A stretch of DNA of 63,144 bases, filler included, from Rozella allomycis CSF55 (Eukaryota), in NCBI GenBank assembly GCA_000442015.1. It is 12 parts of 12 records of this genome, joined end to end, with 100 filler letters (N's around TTAATTAATTAA, not from the genome) between each part and the next. Parts side by side here need not be neighbours in the genome. Positions count along the whole stretch, not along the records: positions 53,456 to 58,095 come from KE560370.1; 11 more parts are not named here. One strand, given 5' to 3'. The position numbers and the translations under genes were made by a program. This document shows, in pieces, positions 3,926 through 62,685 of this stretch. Numbering within the stretch: position 1 is the first letter of the stretch; each line of letters starts with the position of its first letter. Below the pieces are notes generated by a model. It searched no databases and was not told where the DNA came from. It saw nothing but the letters and a program-made list of their open reading frames with translations.

Positions 3926-6720
3926 AAGATGCGGGTTGGACGGCTGGTGAAGGCTGTTGGACAGTTCCATGCGAATGTGGAGCGGGATGACCAGAAGAGG
4001 CAGGAGAGGATGGCGCGGGAGCGTATCCAGGCGCTCAAGGCGGATGATGAGGAGGCGTATTTGAAGCTTGTGAGTCAGCAAAAGGATACGCGGATATCGT
4101 TCCTGTTGAAGCAGACGGATGAGCATTTAGCGTCGTTGACGCAGTTGGTGAGGGAGCAGCAGAATGAGTTGGGAGAGATTGAAGAGGAAAAGGAGGAGGA
4201 GTATTTGGGCGATGAGAGTAGGGCTAATTATTATGGAACGGCGCATCGAGTGCAGGAGAATGTTGTTGAGCAGCCGAGTATATTGATTGGGGGTAGACTG
4301 AAGGATTACCAGTTGAAGGGGCTGCAGTGGATGGTGTCGTTGTATAATAACCATTTGAATGGGATCTTGGCGGATCAGATGGGATTGGTAAGGGGATGAG
4401 GGGTGAATAGAATAGGGGAAAACGATACAGACGATTAGTTTGATAGCTTATTTGATGGAGGTGAAGAGACAGAATGGACCGTTTTTGATTATTGTTCCGC
4501 TTTCAACGATGACTAATTGGAGTTTGGAGTTTCAAAAATGGGCGCCTAGTATTAAAAAGGTTGATTATAAAGGATCGCCTAATGTGAGAAAGGGGCTGCA
4601 GGGGGAGATAAGAAAGATGAATCCGAATGTGATAATAACGACGTTTGAGTATATAATAAAGGATAGACAGTTTCTGTCAAGGATTAAGTGGTTGTATATG
4701 ATAGTGGATGAGGGACATAGGATGAAGAATGCGCAGAGCAAGTTGTCGTCGACTATTGGACAATACTATTCAACAAAGTATAGATTGATATTGACTGGGA
4801 CTCCACTGCAGAACAATTTACCAGAATTGTGGAGTTTGTTGAATTTTGTGTTACCGAAAGTGTTTAGTTCGATAAAGTCGTTTGATGAATGGTTTAATGC
4901 GCCGTTTGAGAATACAGGGGAGAGATTGGAGTTGAATGAAGAAGAGACGTTGTTGATTATTAGAAGATTGCATAAAGTTTTGAGACCATTTCTGTTGAGA
5001 AGATTGAAAAAGGATGTTGAATCAGAGTTGCCTGATAAAGTTGAGAGAATAATAAAATGTAAATTGTCGGCGTTGCAGATTAATTTGTATGAGAGTATTA
5101 AACAGAAATCCAGTTTGGAAAAGAAAGTGTAATTTAATTTTGAGAGTTTAAAAGTGGATTTAGGAAGTTGAATAATACGATTATGCAGTTGAGAAAGATT
5201 TGCAATCATCCGTTTGTGTTTAATGAAGTTGAGAGCCAAATGAACCCACACAAAGTTAACAATGAATTGTTGTACAGAACGAGTGGTAAATAATCTTTTA
5301 ATATAAGAAAAGGAAAGTTTGAGTTGTTGAGAAGAATATTGCCAAAGTTTCAAGCCAGCAATCATAAAGTATTGATATTTTTCCAAATGACGCAAATTAT
5401 GACTATAATGGAAGATTTGTTGAATATGATTGGAATTAAATATTTGAGATTGGATGGATCAACTAAATCTGAAGATAGAACGAAATGTTTAGAATTGTTT
5501 AATAAAAGTGATGAATTCAGTGTATTTCTATTATCAACGAGAGCTGGTGGATTAGGTAATTGAGTTGTTAAAGTGTTAACAATAGGTAATTGAGTTGTTG
5601 AAGTGTTAAAAGGTTTAAATTTACAATCTTCTGATACTGTTATAATATTTGATTCAGATTGGAATCCACACCAAGATTTACAAGCACAAGATAGAGCGCA
5701 TAGAATTGGACAAACAAAACAAGTGAGAATATTTAGACTTGTGACATCCAATTCAATTGAAGAAGTTATTTTAGCTAAAGCGCAATACAAATTAAACTTA
5801 GATGGGAAGATTATTCAAGCTGGAAAATTTGATAATAAATCTACAAATGAAGAAAGAGAAGCAATGCTAAGATCTTTACTTGACTCTGAAAGAAACAATA
5901 ACAATTCTGAAGACATTTTTGATGATGATGAATTAAATGATATTATAGCAAGAAATGATTCTGAATTAGATTTATTCAAAAGAATCGATAAAGAAAGAAA
6001 TGAATTTGATAAACAAACTTGGAATTTCAATGGTGATAAACCAAGGTACACTATCAATTGTTTAAACAAAATAGATTAATTGGTCAAGATGAATTGCCTC
6101 AAGTATTGTTAAACATTCCTGAAGAACAACCTCAAACTAATGATCTATTAGATTACAACAATGGAAGAAGAAAGAGAAAGACAATCAGCTATGATGAAAA
6201 CAACGATGATCCCTTTGATTCCAATCCAACTGAATCTGCTATAGAATCACAACAAGGTAGTTACGTTATTGACACACCACAAGGTATTGAATCACAACAA
6301 GGGTTAGACAATGAATTTCAACCATCAAAAGTTGCTTCTGATTTTAATAATCCACGAGACTTATTCTACGCTATAAACGCTGATCTCTACGCTTCAATCG
6401 ATTCATTCTCGTAACTAATTCTCTCTTACTCAAATAGTGGCCATCGTCGTATCGATCCTTTTATTATTCTTCCAAACGCTTCTGATTATCCAGATTACTA
6501 TGAAATCATCAAAAATCCTATCTGTTTATCCGACATTAAATACAAGGCCGACAATAACTTGTACTCTTCTTTTGATTCTCTCAAATCTGATCTCTGTCTC
6601 TTGTTTGACAATGCTCAAATTTACAATCAAGATGGCTCCATTATATTTGATGATTCTGTTGCACTAAAGAATATTGTCTTGAAATACTTTCCCACAAAAC
6701 TCAAGTTGAAAATTAAATAA
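3926..6720 (+). CDS. SNF2: SWI/SNF-RSC ATPase SNF2/STH1/BRM family, 5'-truncated
   Basis: HSA/post-HSA ([17 protein letters not shown]), [54 protein letters not shown], SnAC and a C-terminal bromodomain ([12 protein letters not shown]...NAQIYN). Introns at 4388-4415, 5129-5154, 5286-5312, 5556-5612, 6046-6074 and 6411-6437. Confidence 0.95.
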
Positions 6721-25630: not shown

Positions 25631-25927
25631 TTATTTACTCCATGGAGGTTTATTTTCATCATTCAAAAACTCCAATTCTTCTTTCGTAGAAACCCTGCCT
25701 AAATATCCGTTTCGATGAGGAAACCGCCCAAACTTTTCTATAACTTTGCGATGCTGAATGGCGTGATCCAAGCACACGTTAAAAAACGTTTTAAACTCTC
25801 CATTCTCCTGCTCGAGTCCCAGTTTTGTAAACAGATCCACAGCAATGTTTTGCATTTCAATATCTTCTGAATGTTCGAATGGCAGGTACATGAACATTTT
25901 GTGGAATGGAGTGGGTAGATCTTTGTC
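25631..25927 (-). repeat. 3' part of a second DUF924 copy (likely allele)
   Basis: Near-identical to 25955-26251; n at 25928. Confidence 0.8.
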
Positions 25928-25954: not shown

Positions 25955-26572
25955 TTATTTACTCCATTGAGGTTTATTTTCATCATTCAAAAACTCCAAT
26001 TCCTCTTTCGTAGAAACCCTGCCCAAATATGCGTTTCGATGAGGAAACCGCCCAAACTTTTCAATAACTTTGCGATGCTGAATGGCGTGATCCAAGCACA
26101 CGTTAAAAAACGTTTTAAACTCTCCATTCTCCTGCTCGAGTCCCAGTTTTGTAAACAGATCCACAGCAATGTTTTGCATTTCAATATCTTCTGAATGTTC
26201 GAATGGCAGGTACATGAACATTTTGTGGAATGGAGTGGGTAGATCTTTGTCTGACTTTAAATTGACCGCCTTTTGGGCGAGTTGGAGGGCTAATGAATCG
26301 AAGGAGAATGCTTTGGCCGTGTTTCTGTAAATGTTTCTTGGAAACTGATCGAGAAGAATGATAATTGCTAAAATGTCGAGAGGCTTTGTGTATGCTTGAA
26401 GTGAATTTGAAGCATCCGGTTTTGAGAATGATAACAAGTCTTGTTTGAAGAGGCTGGCTATTTGGTCGTCGAATTCCTTGTTGGAAGCGAACCAAGATTG
26501 TGATATGCTGGGAATGTTTTTGAGGTCTTTGAACCAAAAGGTGAGAATTTTTTGTGTTAACTCTTTTGACAT
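25955..26572 (-). CDS. DUF924 family protein, intronless
   Basis: ILTFWF...WF...IILLDQFPRNIYR...FMYLPFEHSED...IEKFGRFPHRNAYLGRVSTKEE. Confidence 0.92.
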   Translation of the reverse strand: MSKELTQKILTFWFKDLKNIPSISQSWFASNKEFDDQIASLFKQDLLSFSKPDASNSLQAYTKPLDILAIIILLDQFPRNIYRNTAKAFSFDSLALQLAQKAVNLKSDKDLPTPFHKMFMYLPFEHSEDIEMQNIAVDLFTKLGLEQENGEFKTFFNVCLDHAIQHRKVIEKFGRFPHRNAYLGRVSTKEELEFLNDENKPQWSK

Positions 26573-26578
26573 TTGAGN

Positions 26579-26824
26579 GTAAATGTTTCTTGGAAACTGA
26601 TCGAGAAGAATGATAATTGCTAAAATGTCGAGAGGCTTTGTGTATGCTTGAAGTGAATTTGAAGCTTCCGGTTTTGAAAATGATAACAAGTCTTGTTTGA
26701 AAAGCATTGCTATTTGGTCGTCGAATTCCTTGTTGGAAGCGAACCAAGATTGTGAAATACTGGGAATGTTTTTGAGGTTTTTGAACCAAAAGGTGAGAAT
26801 TTTTTGTGTTAACTCTTTTGACAT
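26579..26824 (-). repeat. 5' part of a second DUF924 copy (likely allele)
   Basis: Near-identical to 26327-26572; n at 26578. Confidence 0.8.
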
Positions 26825-38897: not shown

Positions 38898-40520
38898 GGA
38901 CAGAGTAAAGTCTAGGTATTACATTTTGAGATCTTTGTCTACGGCGCCATTAATTTTTCATCCACACGTAATGTTTAGGAAAGTCCACATATGTTAGCTG
39001 TGTTGCAAATTCATCGTGCTAAAAGACGTTAAAATATTCAGTAAGTTTAGTGCAGCGTCCTCTCTCCAAAATATTTTCTAAAGATTCCGAGTCCTGAAAT
39101 GTGACAAATTGATTATCTTCTAAGTGCACCGGTAAGCGATATATTGCATAAGAATGACCATGTAAATTAAACTCAAAAATGCGGCATGCAGCTTCGCAGG
39201 CTGATGCATATCTTGCGTCAAGATAATTGGAGATTTCATCAAATCGCTACTGCTAAACTCGATCTATCATGTCCCTTGTGCATATTTGTTTTAAATACTT
39301 TACGGACTTTACGGATGAACATAGCTCAATCTTTGTATGGCATTGATATTTCATAAGAAGGCAAGAGTTGTACGGTACAATCCATTGATTATTAATGCTC
39401 ACCTCCCGGCGGTTTANTTACTAACGGACTTTACGGATGAACTTATCTTAATGTTTGTATGGCATTGATATTTCATAAGAAAGTAAGGGTTGTACGGTAC
39501 AATCCATTGATTATTAATGCTCACCTCCGGCGGTTTATAACCTTCTTAATCTCATGATTGCTTTGGCGACGTCGATAAATTGGGTAGCCATTATCACATT
39601 TTGATGTACGTGGTGCGAATGGTTTGGGATAAGCTTTGGTACATGTGGGTGGTCTGTGTTGATTGGTTTGACTCATGCATGGAGATCGGGGGTTAATGTG
39701 GCCGCACGGGCCATGAACACCATATGAGTCGCAACTAAATCATATAACTCCGGTTGGGTTTCCCTATCTGGTATTTCGGCTGAAACAAATTTATCAAAAT
39801 CAATTGGATCGCGTGGTTTGGATGATTCATCTGAAATAAGTAAAATGTGAGCATGCGGTAACCCTCTCTTTTGAAATTCTACAACATACATAAAGGCAAT
39901 TACTTTTCCAAAAATATTGTTTCTTGTGAGGTCCTGAATGATCAATTTAAGTTCTTAATTAAATACACGGGCGACAATGTCAGGGCGATCTTGCGCTGTC
40001 TGGTNAAAACAAATTTATCAAAGTCAATTGGATCGCGTGGTTTGGATGATTCATCTGAAATAAGTAAAATGTGAGCATGCGGTAACCCTCTCTTTTGAAA
40101 TTCTACAACATACATAAAGGCAATTACTTTTCCAAAAATATTGTTTCTTGTGAGGTCCTGAATGATCAATTTAAGTTCTTAATTAAATACACGGGCGACA
40201 ATGTCAGGGCGATCTTGCGCTGTCTGGTTTAACATTAGGTTGTCCTTAATTTCAGGCCAGGAAGGGTTACATGTGACAGTGATAAACAAATCTGGTTTTC
40301 CAAACTCACGTACTATTGCCATTGAATCCTGGTATAATTGCAGCATAGCTCTAGGACCTGCGGTAAAGCTCGATGGTAACACGATTCGTCTTCCTACACG
40401 TTCATTANTTTGATGGTAACACGATTCGTCCTCCTACACGTGCATTATCATTTGCAAAAGCATCGTAAAGGCCTTGGTAAAGTTCAGATCTTATTTGGCG
40501 CTGATGAGTTCTAAAAAATT
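38898..40520 (-). mobile_element. Helitron Rep-domain remnant
   Basis: LPSSFTAGPR...YQDSMAIVREFGKPDLFITVTCNPSW...DRPDIVARVF and HUH motif VEFQKRGLPHAHILL; frameshifted. Confidence 0.92.
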
Positions 40521-45286: not shown

Positions 45287-46519
45287 GTGCATCTCAAAAT
45301 CGTTGTTCCGGACCACCTTACGAAAGGAGTTTTTTCATTCGCTGAGGATGCAATAAATGCGGTATTGGCCGCGCGCCACGGGCAGGAGGGTTGTGCTGGT
45401 GTTGTCAACTTTTTGACTATGTTAATCTCTTATAGGAAACTCTTTATAACTAATGCGGCTATAATTTATGACAACGCAGTCCTGGATCGTGATGTACGTA
45501 CACAGGACATATTCAAAGCCTTGCCATTTTGTACAAAAGAATTTCGTCATTGGAGTCAAAATGATTGTAAACGGCAATATCAGGCACTGCGTGAACATCC
45601 GTCGTTCAATTTTGAAAATATTCAAAATGAAAAGCTTTCCGAGTTACTCTCCCAGTTGCGAGAATTTGGTGCCATAGTACATAAAACACAAATCGATGAA
45701 AATGCGAAAGTGTTGCAGAGATTGGAACGGATCGAGAAGAAGTTGGCCATAGATCAAACATCAAGCAGTGAGACTCATTTCAATCCATGGACGCCCTTGA
45801 AAACCAAGTCGCGACCATCGTCCCCGGTTGTAGCGCGGGTTCCCTTGCCGTCATTGGAGTCGCCACGGAAATCAGAGTCTCCAAAACGACGCCGATTCAA
45901 ACCAAATCCAAACAATCCACGACGCACATGCTTGGAGATTTTGAATTTAGGTACAGATGACAATCAACTTTCGACAAAGTCCAATTCACAATTTACAAAA
46001 CCTGCGGCGCCCACAGCGCAAGCGACGTTACGCCAGGATAAGAAAGTTGATAGCAATGCCTCACCTCAAAGCGGATGGTCAGGTAAAGTCCCTTTGCTCT
46101 CTGATCCCATCCTACAATCTGGTCCACAAAAGTGTACAACGGTTAAAGATATGTGGAATGCGTATGCGTATGGTTCTGACAGTTATCCTCCCTGGCGCAA
46201 ATTGGAGGAGATGTATGGTGCTAAATGGAGACGTAGCGGAACGTCACGCACGACGTGGTCGCGCATGATAAAAGGAATTATTATGCTTGAAGTTATTTTC
46301 TTTGAGCATGGCGACAAAATGCTGGCATTTGTGGAAACCGAATTAAACATTCAAACATTGACTCAGTTGAATAAAGTGGTTAATGACTGGCATGACTGGC
46401 CAAATTCTATAAAATCTATTCGCGATGAAAGTAAAAGACTCAAAGAAAAGTCGAAACATATCATTGAATGGCTTTTGGTTAGAGCTGGGGGACTGAACAC
46501 CTCCAAAAGTCAGACATAG
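45287..46519 (+). CDS. GCR1_C-domain protein; 3' half of a CryptonF/Ndc10-like gene
   Basis: TTVKDMWNAYAYG---PPWRKLEEMYGAKWRR---RTTWSR (GCR1_C); N-terminal FLTMLISYRKLFITNAA...HPSF resembles the end of the Crypton/Ndc10 domain; intronless; truncated by the contig start. Confidence 0.75.
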   Translation: MHLKIVVPDHLTKGVFSFAEDAINAVLAARHGQEGCAGVVNFLTMLISYRKLFITNAAIIYDNAVLDRDVRTQDIFKALPFCTKEFRHWSQNDCKRQYQALREHPSFNFENIQNEKLSELLSQLREFGAIVHKTQIDENAKVLQRLERIEKKLAIDQTSSSETHFNPWTPLKTKSRPSSPVVARVPLPSLESPRKSESPKRRRFKPNPNNPRRTCLEILNLGTDDNQLSTKSNSQFTKPAAPTAQATLRQDKKVDSNASPQSGWSGKVPLLSDPILQSGPQKCTTVKDMWNAYAYGSDSYPPWRKLEEMYGAKWRRSGTSRTTWSRMIKGIIMLEVIFFEHGDKMLAFVETELNIQTLTQLNKVVNDWHDWPNSIKSIRDESKRLKEKSKHIIEWLLVRAGGLNTSKSQT

Positions 46520-53355: not shown

Positions 53356-53455
53356 NNNNNNNNNNNNNNNNNNNNNNNNNNNNNNNNNNNNNNNNNNNNT
53401 TAATTAATTAANNNNNNNNNNNNNNNNNNNNNNNNNNNNNNNNNNNNNNNNNNNN

Positions 53456-54389
53456 AATTTTAAAATTACATTTCGACATTCCAAAAGAATTTTTTATATT
53501 TGAGAGGAGCCACGTCTCTGGTTTAGCGCCAAGAGTTCCAATAGAAGAAAATTGACAAATCAATTGATCTGTTCTCTTTACGTTCTCCAGGTACTTTGAA
53601 AGCAATTTAGAAAGTTTAAAGTGCCCATAGGAATTTAATAGATTGTTTTTATGCCTTCCTGGAATAGATGGTATCAGCCTTGACAAATTAATAATAAAAG
53701 GAGTGTTTTTACTTTTATCGAGCTAAAGTCATATTGCATAATCTTTTCTGCGTATGACTTGAAAGCAAAGGGGTAGCCTTGAAAATAATCTTCCAAGTCT
53801 AATTGAAAGGGTGATTTCTTTGATAAATCGCTTGGTTTCTTTAGACTCAATTGAGGAGTAATAAAAACCATCTGTGTTTTATTTCTTTGAAAATAAATTT
53901 ATGCTTATTACTTCCAATCACTTTCAATTAAGTTCGCCGTGTGGATGATTACAGTTAGTTTATCATTATGATCGAAAATGAACATGGTCTATTTTCTTAG
54001 TACAATTTTGATACTTTGGTATGATGACACCCATAATTAAACATTAGATGCGGTTCTATAAATTTTATATATGAATCATATTCCCCTGAGGAACCTTTCT
54101 GTCCATATACTATAACTCCTTCAACTGAATTCTCTAACTGATTGTATAACCAATCCACATCAACCATAAAATTGATTTGTATCATAAATTTGGGATTTAT
54201 CTGTTTGAAAATTAGTTTCAAGTTAATTGAAGATTCATTTCTCATTGGAGGACCATCCAGAACGTCGATCCATCCAACACGACAACCATCTGGTAAAATA
54301 GTACACCCGGGATGTTTTAGAGTCTTAGCTTTCTTTAAAACGTGATCTTCATCTCCACTGGATAGTATTTCTATAATTTCGTTTTCCAT
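53456..54389 (-). CDS. TDP1: Tyrosyl-DNA phosphodiesterase 1, 3'-truncated
   Basis: NFMVDVDW, YGCHHTK|TM, IHTANLIESDW-NKTQ, FQLDLEDY, DFSSIK|SRLIPSIPG, CQFSSIGTLG. Confidence 0.92.
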
Positions 54390-54465
54390 GAAAAGCCACT
54401 GCTGAATGAAGGCAAGAAAGTTCAATTAATAAGAAATTTCATTAACAATTGCTAATTAAAGAAAA

Positions 54466-55486
54466 TTAATTTATTATCTCATTAAATTTTGTGCATTTAA
54501 AATCATTCCAGATCTTTGAAAAACACATTACACTTTCTGGCTTCTTGAATGTCCAGTAATGGTCAAAAGCAATAAAAGTTCCAGCTAAATATTGCACAAA
54601 CATTATTACTGCAAAATAAATGATTAAACAAATCAAATGAGCAATCATGCTGGTAAAAATACAACTTCAAATCGTTCGATTGCATACTTTCATATAAAAA
54701 GAAAGAAATATTGATTCCCAGAACTGCAAAAGGGTACCAAAAAATTAGAAAGTGATAATTACATACCAGGTTGTGTCATACATTCCTTGAGACTTTTGCA
54801 ATATTTCATTAGACTCATCGGGATACTCGTTTCCAAAGAAAATAAGTTGTGATAGTCCAAGCAACCCCATTCCCCTGAAGTCTGTAGCGGGATCTTTTCC
54901 TTGAAATCCCAAACTTTTCCAGTGACTTCCAATTCTTTGATACTCTTCGCTAAAATGAATGTCCCAAAGTAATTTCAACATCTCTTCGTGCTCCGCATTT
55001 CCAGACTGAAATTTGGTGTTTGCCGTGTCGTTAATTTTTTTCATTAGGCTTTCAAACAAAGATAATTTGTGAGTGGCATCCAAAAGGGATTTTCTGGTAC
55101 CGATCTAACATCAAATAAGGAGCCAAATTACACTTAAACTCTTTGCTATCGAAAATTCTCGTATGATATTTTCATCCCAGTTAGAAACACATTTACTGTT
55201 TAGCGATATTTTCAATAATCAAGAAGCTACAATGTTACTTGAAATATTTTTGAACGCGGTAAATAGTTTTCTTTTAAAAAGAAATAGGTAAATTACCTAA
55301 CACGAGTATTTCATTTGGTGTTGCAACATTTTTCGAAGTGCTTAGATATCTGTCCACAAAATGTTGCCGAGAAATGAGATAGATCAAAAAGCGGACCTTT
55401 GATATGATTCCGTCCAAATACGTGTGAAATCTGAATAAGTAAAACACATAAATGAAATCCAATATTGCAAAAAAATTTTCGATCAT
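54466..55486 (-). CDS. ELMOD: ELMO/CED-12 domain protein (ELMOD)
   Basis: HEEMLKLLW...WKSLGFQGKDPATDFRGMGLLGL...W|YPFAVLGINIS...FDHYW---PESVMCF; 5 introns, two apparently GT-TG. Confidence 0.9.
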
Positions 55487-55511
55487 GAAAAAGAAATTTC
55501 TCAAGTGAGAT

Positions 55512-56248
55512 TTATTCGCCATACATAAGTTCTTTGTATCCTGGAGGAATAACTTCTTGGCCTTGTTCTATGCCGTATTTTTTATTCAGTTCAAAAAGCC
55601 GTTCGTACAAAAAGTATTGTGACTAACAATTAAACTTGATTTTTGAATTACCTCAAATTGAACAAAAATTTCTCGGTGATTAGACCAAGCATGCCCGAAA
55701 ATGCGAAGTATTCTTCTTGAGATGTTCTCTAAATGAGGTTTCACATTAGGGTCTAATCCTGACCTAGATGTAAAGAAATTTAAATCGGTTACCTTTTTGG
55801 GAATATTTTACTTGAAATAAGAGTTGAGACTGCTTGATCAACTGTGTGTACAACATAATCAAGCGCGCTGCACTAATAAAAACTTTATCAACGCTATACT
55901 TCTTTAGGGATGGGATGTGAAGCGCATAGATATAGCCAATCATTTATCTTCATTACTGGGCAAGTTTGACTAGAACATTCTTCCTGTAGCATCACTAGTA
56001 AATTAGTAAGTTCAATGCATATCTGCCTTAGTTGTTCATAAATCCAGTCCATAGCATTATATTTTTCAGGCAATTCAATGATATCACTTATATTTGAAGG
56101 ATCTGACTGTATTCTAAGCTTGATATATTGATGTGGCTGTAGGTTAGTCGTTCCACTTTTATCATCGCACTTGTATAAATCCTTTTATTCTAGTATTTTA
56201 AGGCTATACTTCTAAAGTAGTCCCTATTTTAGACTTGCGTTGGTCCAT
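55512..56248 (-). CDS. MOB4: MOB4/phocein (fungal Mob3), STRIPAK subunit; 4 introns
   Basis: Hand splicing gives WIYEQLRQICIEL...ECSSQTCPVM...WLYLCASHPIPKE|CSALDYVVHTVD...FPKR...RRILRIFGHAWSNHREIF. Confidence 0.9.
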
Positions 56249-56343
56249 AATTGGAATTTTGTGGATTTTTCAATTCCCAAAAGAATATTTTATGACATCT
56301 GAAAAGGCTAAACTTAATTTTGAAATATCTCAATTACATAGTG

Positions 56344-57279
56344 ATGACAAAACAAAGTTTTTGCTTTGATGATATTCCAGATTTATCAGGAAAGGTAGCG
56401 ATTGTTACCGGTGGAAACACTGGAATAGGGTTTGTGACCGTACGGGAATTAGCCAGAAAGAATTGTCACGTTTTTCTTGGAAGTAGAAGCAAAGAAAAGG
56501 CTGATATTGCAATTCAAAAAATAAAGGAGGTGATTCCAAACGCGAATGTCGAGTTTCTTGGGATGGATCTACTTAGCTTGGAATCAGTCGATGCAGCAGT
56601 GCATGACTTTAAAGCAAAAGGTTTACCTCTCCACATATTGATTAATAATGCCGGCATTATGGCATGTCCATTTTCACTTTCAAAGGATGGTATTGAATCT
56701 CAATTCGCTACAAATCATGTTGCACATTTTAGGCTTACGACGGGTTTACTACCCATCTTGGAAGCTAGCAGACCTTCCAGAATAGTTAACGTCAGTTCTA
56801 TGGCGCATAAGTGGGCAGACTCATTTGATCTTAATGAATTAAATAATGAAAAGAAATATTCAAAATGGACAGCTTACGGTGTTTCGAAATTGTCAAACAT
56901 ATATTTTACTAGAGAACTATCACGACGGTTGGAGGAAAAAGGTGTAAATGATTTGTATGTCAATTGTGTGCATCCAGGGGTGGTTAATACAGAACTTACA
57001 AGACATAATTCTTTCTTCGGGTTGACCAAATTCTTTGCATCTTTATTCTTTATATCGCCTGATCAAGGCGCGATGACTCAACTTTATGTTGCCACAAATC
57101 AGGATATTGAAAGGAACAATTACAAGGGCCAGTATTTTGTAAAGAACTTGAATTTAAATAATTAGATACCAATAGCTAAACATTCTCAGACAACTAAACA
57201 AGGCGATGATAAGGAAAAGGCCAAACACTTATGGAACTTTACTGAAAACCTAATTGCTGACAAATATAAGCCAAAATAA
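56344..57279 (+). CDS. Short-chain dehydrogenase/reductase (RDH12/WWOX-like)
   Basis: VTGGNTGIG, LINNAG, FATNHVAHF, VNVSS, YGVSK, VHPGVV; 1 intron. Confidence 0.93.
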
Positions 57280-57303
57280 AAAAATTCCAAAATGTAAATC
57301 TCT

Positions 57304-58095
57304 TTATTTATTCTTTTTAAGCCATTCGTCTATTGCTATATATTTTATAAAGAATACGACAAATGCGACCATGGACATGTACGCCGTTATCTGCAACATT
57401 AAATCTGATCTTTGAATTGCCATTTCTGGGGAAATGATATCGTCTTTGTGGCTATTCTGGATAATGTAACCAAAAATTCCTGCGAAACATGCCGATAGTC
57501 CGGAGAAGACACCAGTGAAAAGGGATTGGGCAGTAGTTTTCAATTCTGGGGGTGCTAACTTTAGGGCTAATTGGACACCAGCAGCCTATTTTAAACCAAG
57601 ATCAAAATTACATGCATGAATCCAAAATTTAGGCCTTTAAATAATTCATAAGCGATTGGAGCAAATTGCACTAGTTCAAAATTCCTTGGAAGGAAAGCGT
57701 AGCAGCTAATTCTTAAGACCATTGCAACTTGGGCAAACAAAAGCATGTAACGAACTCCAAACTTTTGAAGCAACGGTTTGGCGTAGAAAAATACAACGAT
57801 TTCAAAAAACACACCGCTCACAGTTGAAAATCCAGTTGCCCATCTACTTTTAGATGATCGAATATTATTACTGAGGTGCCTTGAAACTTGTTCTTTGAAT
57901 TGGCTCTAAGAAGTGAGTCATAATGGCCCTTGCTAGACCATTCATGAAAACAACCAGTAGTAAGAACATATAGTTTCCATTCGTCAATAGTCGTAAAGTG
58001 GGTGACTTCTTTGAAGCATTGGATGAATTTTCTGAGCTTGAATCGTCCTTATCATTAATCTTTGCGGATTTTAAAGTGTCCATTGTAACATTCTC
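57304..58095 (-). CDS. MFS transporter (MFSD6-like), C-terminal half
   Basis: Six hydrophobic segments; FFEIVVFFY, RISCY, ELFKGLNFG, APPELKTTAQSL; 2 introns; 5'-truncated. Confidence 0.8.
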
Positions 58096-58195: not shown

Positions 58196-59759
58196 AGGGT
58201 CAAAGCAGAGACGGAGCATCATGAAACAGGCCCTATGCATCGAAATACCGTTAGTAGTAATATCAAAACCTAAAAAATCAAGTTCTGTGACATGGAAATA
58301 ACACTTTTCTAATTTTGCAAAAAGATGATGTTCTCTCAATTTTTGCAGAACTATTTTAACATGTTGAGCATGTTCTTCTGAATTTTTGGAAAAAATTAAA
58401 ATATCATCCAAATAGATAACAACAAACTGATCTAATAAATCATGAAAATTATTATTCATCATATTTTAAAAAATTGATGGTCCGTTACATAATCCAAACG
58501 GCATTACTTGGTATTCAAATTGACCGTACTTTGTACGAAATGCTGTTTTCCATTGATCTGATTTCTTTACTCTTATTNATTGATCTGATTTCTTTACTCT
58601 TATTAAATTATAGGCACCTCTTAAATCCAATTTTGTGAATACTTTGAACCTTTTAAATTATCTATTAAATTTTGAATAAGTGGTATTGGATATCAATTTT
58701 TGCGGTAATATTATTCAATTTCCTATATTCTACAACAAGTCTCAGAGATCCGTCTTTCTTTTTTACAAACATAATTGGTGAAGCTGAAGGAGATTTACTC
58801 GGAACAATAAATTTCTTTTTAAATTCTCATCTAAATAAATCTTTAAAGCTTTTGACTCATCTTGTGATAAATTGTATATTGGACCAAACGGTGGTTTAGT
58901 GTCTTTTAATAAATCAATTGTAATATCAAATTCTGAATGCTCTGGTAGTTGAGATGCTCTTAATACACTAAATGCATCAAGATATTCATGATCAATTTCT
59001 TGGAGCTTTGAACGAAAATCAATATCCGTTTTTAAGATAGAATGTATAGAATGAATGAATTTCTTTGTTTTATGCATTTGATTAGAATCGTTAGACTTAT
59101 CATTTTTACAATGAGTTTCCAGATTGATATTCATGGTTCGATGTTTCCAGTCAATATTTGGATTGTTTTAAACTAATAGTATTGAAGTGTGGACTTTTAA
59201 TTAATCTAAAAGAGTGATGATATGCTTGCTCATTCATAATAAATTTTAAATGCTCGCATTGTCGATCAATATTCAACGGTTGTCCATCGATGGTTTCAAC
59301 TGCCTCACTATGCGACATAACGGAAGATGGAATATTGTAGTATTGAACGACATCTTTGTCAATAAACGAAGTTGAGGCGCCTGAATCAATAAGAACATGA
59401 GTACAAATATCATTCATAATACAAATAGGAAAAACAAGATGGTACGAAGATAAATTGTTCTCTAGAGTACCGTTAGAATTAGCAGTACAATGCTTAGCTA
59501 AATGTCCTTTTGCTCTGCAACGGAAACACCGTCCTTCTCTCTTACATTTTTCACGTCCTTCCACTGATAGTTTAGAGAATCTGTTGAGTGTTCCGTCAAT
59601 TGTCATTGGTTCTGATGTTGAGGTTTCAATTGTTTCAAGATTATTCTGATACTCTTCACTCATTTTCGATGTTTTTTGAAAAGAATACATTTTGTTTCTG
59701 AATTTTCTTTCCTCAATCAAATGTCGCGGACGATCTTGGATTAATATCGGTACAATTTG
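58196..59759 (-). mobile_element. Ty3/Gypsy (Tf2-like) gag-PR-RT remnant
   Basis: [60 protein letters not shown]. Confidence 0.92.
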
Positions 59760-61095: not shown

Positions 61096-62685
61096 CACGG
61101 TGTGGTGACATGTGTGACGTCGCACCCGAATCCACGATCCATTCAACATATTCATTCTCACTGTCACTAATCATCATGGTTCGTTCTTCCTCATCTTCTC
61201 GCATAATCATCGCGATCTCACTCGTCGCTTGATGAATCTTTATCCGCCATATTGGCTTGCTCCTTTGTTTTTGCTTCTCGCCTCGCCTTCCCATTTTCTT
61301 TGGCAGTCAACTTTTTCCAAAGTGGGCAATCAAACTTACGATGTCCTGTTTCATCGCATACGTAGCATCTTCCAGTGTACCACCTCGGTTCTTCGTCCTT
61401 TTGGCTTTCCCGCCTAAAATTCATTGTCTTCACTTGCTTCGTAATCATTGCTACATCTTCTTCCTCCTTGGTTTCTAGTTGATTCATTGTTGTTTGACCT
61501 GCTTTCCATGCCTTTCTCAACTCAGTCGTTCTTGCTTGTGCTTCTTCCCGTTGTGCAATTTGAGATAGGAGGTTCGTTACACAATGAAAGTTGTCTCCAT
61601 CGTCTTCGTTTTCAAACTTCCATTCCAGGTAAAGTTTCTCTTGGTTCTGAGGTAGTAACGTTTGATTCAGCATATTCACAAGTTCATAATCCATCGCCTT
61701 ACCTCCCACATTCTTGCATTCATTGTATACTTCGTCGTATCTTCTTAGGTAATCCGTCAATGGTTTATTCTCTTCTTGATAGAGGTTGTTGATCTTTATT
61801 CGCAGCGAGTTTTGTAGTTGTAGGTCTCGTCTCCCATATTGGTTCTTAAAGAAGGTAACAATCTCACTTGGGTGTCTTATAGTTGGCAAGCNCGTTCTTG
61901 CTTGTGCTTCTTCCCGTTGTGCAATTTGAGATAGGAGGTTCGTTACACAATGAAAGTTGTCTCCATCGTCTTCGTTTTCAAACTTCCATTCCAGGTAAAG
62001 TTTCTCTTGGTTCTGAGGTAGTAACGTTTGATTCAGCATATTCACAAGTTCATAATCCATCGCCTTACCTCCCACATTCTTGCATTCATTGTATACTTCG
62101 TCGTATCTTCTTAGGTAATCCGTCAATGGTTTATTCTCTTCTTGATAGAGGTTGTTGATCTTTATTCGCAGCGAGTTTTGTAGTTGTAGGTCTCGTCTCC
62201 CATATTGGTTCTTAAAGAAGGTAACAATCTCACTTGGGTGTCTTATAGTTGGCAAGCTATCCTTCTCAAAGTGTGTAAGTGTCAATTGTAGCATTGACGC
62301 TATTTGCCTAGCCATCCTCTCACTCCAGTCTCCTTGCTTCATCGCGGTCTCTCTCCCTGAAACCAACCAATCTTCCATTCCTGCTGCCTCAAACGCAGTC
62401 CTCACGTCTTGGTTCCACCTGAACCAACTTCCCTGACCTTCTAACTTCACGAAGGTCTTTTTCCCCAACAGTCTCTCCAGCATAGCTATATTTTCACTTC
62501 CTGGGCTCATAACTCTAAAGTAATTTAAACGAAAACTAATAAATAAACACTTTTAGAGCAGTGAAAAACTTTTTTATTTTATTCAAGGGTCGCATTTATA
62601 CCCCGACCCTGGCTTCTCACTTCTTTCCCGAAATTTCCTTCACACCCTTATTTTTAGGCTTTGCGGCTGTGTTATACCCATAACA
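61096..62685 (-). mobile_element. Copia element 5' part: LTR, PBS, gag, protease
   Basis: Candidate LTR 62514-62685 starting TGTTATGGG; PBS GTTATGAGCCC overlapping the gag ATG at 62510; CYVCDETGHRKFDC; WIVDSGATSHM; duplicated segment across n 61892. Confidence 0.9.

Follow-up and report, generated by a model that had tools for sequence, protein, structure and literature searches.

Few signals of U2-type splicing are as invariant as the 3' AG. Rozella allomycis, an organism with standard stop codons that is related to Microsporidia and to fungi, carries in the gene for an ELMO-domain protein (ELMOD) a 29-nt segment that resembles a mini-intron of this genome but ends in TG. The locus raises the question of whether TG can serve as the productive 3' end of a U2-type intron or whether the gene is spliced in another way or broken.

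Candidate TG introns in two adjacent genes

The window, i.e. the whole stretch of DNA analyzed, comprises 63,144 nt in which 12 contigs are chained via N44-TTAATTAATTAA-N44 linkers (e.g. 53356-53455), so features are not readable across the linkers. Single Ns occur at 18 positions within contigs. The candidate TG introns are carried by one contig of 4,640 nt (53456-58095). Its minus strand holds TDP1 (incomplete, since the contig ends within it), ELMOD, a Mob1 gene and an MFS-like gene, and its plus strand a short-chain dehydrogenase gene. The features considered here are:

54466..55522, minus strand: ELMOD gene, according to our own exon model
55522-55297, 55270-55239, 55212-55132, 55104-54767, 54737-54610, 54584-54466, minus strand: ELMOD exons, the last including the stop codon
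55296-55271 (26 nt), 55131-55105 (27 nt), 54609-54585 (25 nt), minus strand: ELMOD canonical introns
55213..55238, minus strand: possible ELMOD intron 2, 26 nt, GTAACA...TTG
54738..54766, minus strand: putative ELMOD intron 4, 29 nt, GTATGT...TTG
54724..54737, minus strand: stretch between the ELMOD TG and the next AG, 14 nt, encoding the start of YPFA
53456..54386, minus strand: TDP1 gene, 5' part only, the contig end cutting off the rest
54386-54015, 53988-53912, 53884-53713, 53683-53456, minus strand: TDP1 exons
54014-53989 (26 nt), 53911-53885 (27 nt), minus strand: TDP1 canonical introns
53684..53712, minus strand: putative TDP1 intron 3, 29 nt, GTAAAA...TTG, with the next AG 5 nt downstream and out of frame

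Outside R. allomycis the best protein matches reach 45-47% identity, and closer protein relatives were not found, a search for near proteins yielding the deposited R. allomycis model alone. None of 146 pattern matches in metagenome contigs was a relative.

Predicted removal of exactly 29 nt restores the ELMO domain

On the minus strand 54738-54766 reads as the first-pass annotation had described it, being 29 nt long with a GTATGT start, an internal CTAAT and a TTTTTTG end. It is preceded by ...ACCTG and followed by GTACCCTTTTGCA. A 5-nt direct repeat, TGGTA, is found at both ends of the segment, so that six cut placements lead to one identical mRNA and the boundary is ambiguous; among these six, GT..TG is the sole placement starting with GT. 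A second GT-starting placement of the same length had been proposed and is indeed available as the seventh overall. It runs from a GTAATT donor at 54762 to an AC end at 54734 and encodes the identical protein, with TAT instead of TAC as the Tyr codon.

Splicing to the next AG has the consequences that had been predicted for it. With the first donor the resulting intron is 43 nt long and shifts the frame, so that the protein ends 9 residues past the junction; with the second donor it is 39 nt long and in frame, and a stop follows 18 codons on. Use of this AG would also delete the start of YPFA, as it removes 54724..54737.

Homology places the exon junction at the same site. The Pfam profile ELMO_CED12 (PF04727) aligns with the upstream exon over positions 2-100 (E 4.4e-29) and with the downstream exon over positions 97-152, and a W is found at profile position 97 in both exons. 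In tblastn searches with seven homologues the HSPs abut at this W, the two HSPs of P0037 overlapping at W-F, and in the three homologues that have the W it is directly followed by Y/F/R-P/S-F/M-A/S. We built a profile from 45 homologues and scored the possible isoforms against it. The TG-spliced isoform obtained 216.7 bits in a single contiguous match to profile positions 35-302, compared with 144.7 bits for the isoform with the deposited 76-nt GT-AG intron, 144.6 bits for the unspliced form and 143.8 bits for splicing to the next AG. The PF04727 match and the score of the whole TG isoform identify ELMOD as an ELMO/CED-12 domain protein. Among the predicted transcripts only the exact 29-nt removal at 54738-54766 joins the W to YPFA, and the comparison shows that this exact removal is needed.

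TDP1 carries a second candidate TG intron and is under selection

The exons of TDP1 match Pfam PF06087 (tyrosyl-DNA phosphodiesterase) over profile positions 15-105, 130-193 and 193-262, the latter two ranges corresponding to the exons on either side of intron 3. The last exon additionally matches the solved TDP1 structure 1jy1_A (E 7.5e-9); a PDB search with the middle exon as query gave no match. Of 18 aligned homologues 17 span the junction, and 29-nt removal alone is gap-free relative to 13 of these. It also scores highest, with 239.1 bits (TG end) compared with 234.5 bits for removal of 26 nt (AT end) and 231.8 bits for removal of 32 nt (CA end). The best GT-AG alternative, an intron of 119 nt like the deposited one, reaches 163.8 bits, splicing to the next AG (34 nt, frameshift) 137.7 bits and the unspliced form 136.2 bits.

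An in-frame AG end is not available for ELMOD intron 4 or for TDP1 intron 3. Profile scores and the gap-free alignment indicate that both introns need a non-AG end, of which TG scores best, and such an end would be unavoidable if the conserved proteins are made.

Sequencing run X2 contains a second haplotype over 53668-54060 that is ~5% diverged. TG is present in both haplotypes. Comparison of the two gives 13 differences in 248 exon sites of TDP1, 8 synonymous and 5 non-synonymous, and 8 in 82 intron sites in addition to one indel. Only 18% of the possible exon changes are synonymous, hence the probability of at least 8 of 13 under neutrality is 6e-4, and pN/pS is ~0.14. This synonymous excess shows selection on TDP1 and, with TG in both haplotypes, suggests that the gene was kept functional while carrying TG. 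TDP1 thus looks functional rather than decaying, as judged from its 5' part, and no further lesion was found in this part or in ELMOD. The X2 haplotype also has a 1-nt deletion at 53894 within a canonical intron (27 nt vs 26 nt), and four of its amino-acid changes are common to the deposited protein RKP22072.1.

The TG bases are present in three DNA data sets

We compared contigs from three DNA runs belonging to three studies (X1, X2 and X5, with ELMOD depths of about 435, 220 and 9.6, respectively) and they show no difference at 54738/9, 53684/5 or 55213/4. The only nearby changes are those at 53698 and 53702, within the putative TDP1 intron. Since TG is common to the contigs of all three runs, the TGs are not errors of this assembly. 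Neither did these contigs contain a DNA form that lacks the TG-intron segments, with the reservation that contigs can miss rare forms. Elsewhere the assembly differs from the reads by G>A at 55751 in all three runs, and, in X1 and X2, by a synonymous C>T at 54994 and by a G>A at 55025 that changes Thr to Met.

Deposited gene models avoid the TG ends

The deposited ELMO domain-containing protein of R. allomycis CSF55, EPZ37025.1 (107 aa), shows 98% identity with the large ELMOD exon. It reads ...TTWY and continues with a non-homologous tail, as its 76-nt GT-AG intron skips the conserved YPFAVLGINIS. In a similar manner the TDP1 models EPZ37024.1 and RKP22072.1 go directly from ...SSIK or ...GSIK to Y(L/V)ENVK, thereby skipping the conserved PGRH segment and an open HHTK exon. 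Because this skipped HHTK exon is open and canonically spliced, the TDP1 models look like prediction errors, not RNA-based models. All three deposited proteins look like GT-AG-constrained predictions, and the ELMOD and TDP1 models are probably mis-spliced, their truncation or loss of motifs probably resulting from the enforcement of GT-AG. With models bound to GT-AG, comparative work on the Rozella lineage may undercount intact genes.

A third GT-TG intron in ELMOD is possible

The segment 55213-55238 is a weaker case. In-frame removals of 20-38 nt at ELMOD intron 2 score 215.8-218.1 bits and none of them has an AG end. A 151-nt GT-AG intron (55296-55146) is in frame as well and scores 211.9 bits, ~6 bits lower. 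With this alternative a TG intron is not required here, and a GT-TG intron at 55213-55238 is possible. Of the three TG acceptors among about 80 introns counted in the first-pass annotation, two are thus required by homology and the third has an in-frame GT-AG alternative. As all of them come from two neighboring genes of a single 4.6-kb contig, the figure of 3 in 80 cannot be extrapolated genome-wide.

The TG candidates resemble canonical mini-introns of the window in donor and length

Canonical introns in the window have the consensus GTAA(A/T)...(T/A)AG with an AT-rich interior. We used 56 strict GT..AG introns for comparison, of which 11 are 26 nt long, 14 are 27 nt, 8 are 28 nt, 3 are 29 nt and 5 are 30 nt. 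The range of 26-30 nt therefore covers 41 of the 56, and the TG introns with 29, 29 and 26 nt fit into it. The modal length of 29 nt that had been assumed is slightly too high, the canonical peak being at 26-28 nt. A GTA start, a TTG end and a length of 26 or 29 nt are common to all three candidates, and their donors GTATGT, GTAAAA and GTAACA agree with the donor consensus of the window. They resemble the canonical mini-introns of R. allomycis in GTA-type donor, length of 26-29 nt and AT-rich interior and differ from them by T instead of A at position -2. Branch-point distances carry little information, since a YTRAY motif is found in only 15 of the 56 canonical introns.

Counting from 20 nt behind the donor, no other AG or TG precedes the terminal TG in any of the three candidates. 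An unused TG is found within the last 12 nt of 29 of the 56 canonical introns. The rule 'first AG at >=25 nt' fits 51 of the 56 introns and its AG-or-TG version 43, because in 8 introns a TG at >=25 nt precedes the AG supported by the reading frame. Seven of these eight exceptions are 32-34 nt long. Weak donors or low flank scores are found in several of the eight, and most are weaker predictions. TG is not generally equivalent to AG in the window.

We searched the rest of the window with an ad hoc, noisy gene finder, which predicted 107 GT-AG introns. When non-AG ends were allowed in its dynamic programming, it made 57, 26, 15 and 12 non-AG calls at penalties of 4, 6, 8 and 10, respectively. 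Among the calls inspected, the one at 6705 was rejected because a gene ends there and a new start follows, those at 18584 and 18446 as repeat units, and the one at 25166 due to a canonical two-intron path. A stricter scan that linked ORFs ended with 70 noisy donor groups lacking an AG option. Eight breaks between adjacent same-strand fragments contain stop codons or long gaps, and no bridging mini-intron was seen in them. Overall, these noisy ab initio scans of the window yielded no convincing non-AG intron outside the 53456-58095 contig.

A probable GT-TG intron and its rivals

For the ELMOD segment we favor a real GT-TG intron, removed by the spliceosome, and consider this reading probable. 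The interpretation of ELMOD 54738-54766 and TDP1 53684-53712 as U2-type mini-introns with a TG (TTG) as productive 3' site is well supported. We infer that the spliceosome carries out the removal and that it cuts at GT..TG rather than at the other repeat placements, and the share of RNA using TG is inferred likewise.

The main rival is a spliceosome that uses AG only, either the nearby AGs or those of the long deposited GT-AG introns. The TGs would then be inactivating TAG-to-TTG mutations, and ELMOD and TDP1 truncated or decaying genes in a parasite that loses genes. Such decay would agree with the AGs 14 nt (ELMOD) and 5 nt (TDP1) downstream of the TGs, with the GT-AG introns in each of EPZ37025.1, EPZ37024.1 and RKP22072.1, and with the clustering of the TG cases on one contig. 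It would also be in line with human AG-to-TG mutants, in which, according to Szafranski et al. 2007 (PMC2374985), neighboring AGs rather than the TG are activated. However, the segments that would be skipped or frameshifted retain an open correct reading frame and contribute 72-75 bits of homology (GINIS in ELMOD, PGRH in TDP1), and neither gene has another lesion. Every lesion would moreover need the identical A-to-T change at position -2. The low pN/pS of TDP1 between two TG-bearing haplotypes argues against decay, and the deposited TDP1 models lose weight as witnesses because they also skip the open HHTK exon. We therefore consider AG-only splicing of broken genes unlikely. Somewhat less likely still is a TG-AG tandem in which most transcripts are AG-spliced and unproductive and a minor, regulated or leaky TG fraction provides the protein. 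The layout, with an AG at 14, 5 and 17 nt behind the TG of 54738-54766, 53684-53712 and 55213-55238, respectively, is that of human tandems (PMC2374985), but AG use would create introns of 43 nt and 34 nt, outside the 26-30 nt peak.

Two further explanations concern the way in which the ELMOD segment is removed. It could be cut elsewhere, as GT..AC from the GTAATT donor at 54762 or at another position in the TGGTA repeat, which would yield the identical protein and, in the former case, employ a donor common in the window. The last intron base, G, is important for the second catalytic step of splicing. This G is retained in all three TG cases and the TDP1 intron ends with TG without any such ambiguity, which makes a different cut in ELMOD very improbable. 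The TGGTA repeat at both segment ends would also suit explanations without splicing, be it that the ribosome bypasses the segment from the first TGG to the second, that a TA-bounded element is excised from the DNA, or that the assembly is wrong. Short end repeats are likewise known from the T4 gene 60 bypass and the TA-bounded internal eliminated sequences of ciliates, to which the segment size of 29 nt would also correspond. In contrast to these systems, the other Rozella TG introns are free of such repeats, and R. allomycis is related to fungi and has standard stop codons. The three DNA runs contain no joined form without the segment and have identical TGs, and we regard removal without splicing as the least credible of all explanations, with hardly any chance of being correct.

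Relation to known non-AG introns

We compared the candidates with other introns that lack a 3' AG. U12-type introns have the donor consensus (A/G)TATCCTT and a TCCTTAAC branch box. Some of them, AT-AC introns and others, likewise tolerate non-AG 3' ends. The Rozella introns differ from them by the donors GTATGT, GTAAAA and GTAACA and by the lack of a TCCTTAAC-like branch box, as judged by eye against the consensus motifs. By the same comparison with the U12 consensus GTATGT and GTAAAA look U2-like, in agreement with the U2 type that had been assigned to the donors.

Another parallel comes from human genes. In the one systematic human study, by Szafranski et al. 2007, TG 3' sites are verified in 36 genes, always as alternatives beside an AG that is at most 28 nt away and never as the sole 3' site (PMC2374985). 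Like these tandems, the Rozella introns start with GT, end with TG preceded by a pyrimidine (position -3), and have an AG no farther than 28 nt away (PMC2374985). They are unlike the human tandems, whose introns are long and whose TG is only an alternative, in their length of 26-29 nt and in the prediction that the TG isoform alone encodes the conserved protein of ELMOD and TDP1 (PMC2374985). As the TG-AG tandem layout is known from human genes, the Rozella case is not clearly a new mechanism (PMC2374985). Of the suggested undescribed splicing variant, the unavoidable non-AG end of two introns thus holds and the novelty of the mechanism does not clearly follow. The Rozella GT-TG introns would represent a variant of a known rare class in which the TG isoform is predicted to be the sole encoder of the conserved protein.

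A literature search covering sources other than the genome paper (James et al. 2013) and supplementary files found no report of non-AG introns in Rozella. R. allomycis RNA-seq from T. Y. James and the genomes of two further Rozella species are acknowledged as unpublished in PMC13393502.

A possible distance-based choice of the 3' site

Introns with TG as sole productive end would indicate a different choice of the 3' site. In the mechanism we propose, a usual GTA-type 5' site would be combined with a 3' cut at the first (A/T)G that gives the preferred intron length of ~26-29 nt. The AG 5-17 nt downstream may aid early recognition, as is proposed for human TG-AG tandems. That the 3' site of the 26-29 nt introns is chosen mainly by its distance from the 5' site or branch point, with UG accepted as the sole productive site, is a tentative and rather doubtful extension of the sequence pattern. 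If true, a few percent of introns genome-wide would be GT-TG introns invisible to GT-AG-bound annotation, and R. allomycis would belong to the first lineage with TG as a constitutive 3' splice site. With its closeness to Microsporidia and its very short introns, this lineage would provide a natural variant for studying the second catalytic step.

Other features of the window

Likely retrotransposon pieces are located at 58805-59756 and 61221-62552 on the minus strand. In this retrotransposon-like sequence two long ORFs abut with a 1-nt frame break at ~59165, and a 444-aa ORF contains a gag domain together with a zinc knuckle. On the plus strand, 45287-46516 is a 410-aa ORF that has a GCR1_C DNA-binding domain and may also belong to a mobile element. 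Near-identical repeat units, tandem or dispersed within contigs, are found at 17579-17610 and 18004-18035, at 18419-18446 and 18555-18584, at 39840 and 40064, and at 25827 and 26151. Finally, 25958-26824 on the minus strand is a DUF924 gene (243 bits) with an N inside one intron, and according to Pfam this family is bacterial.
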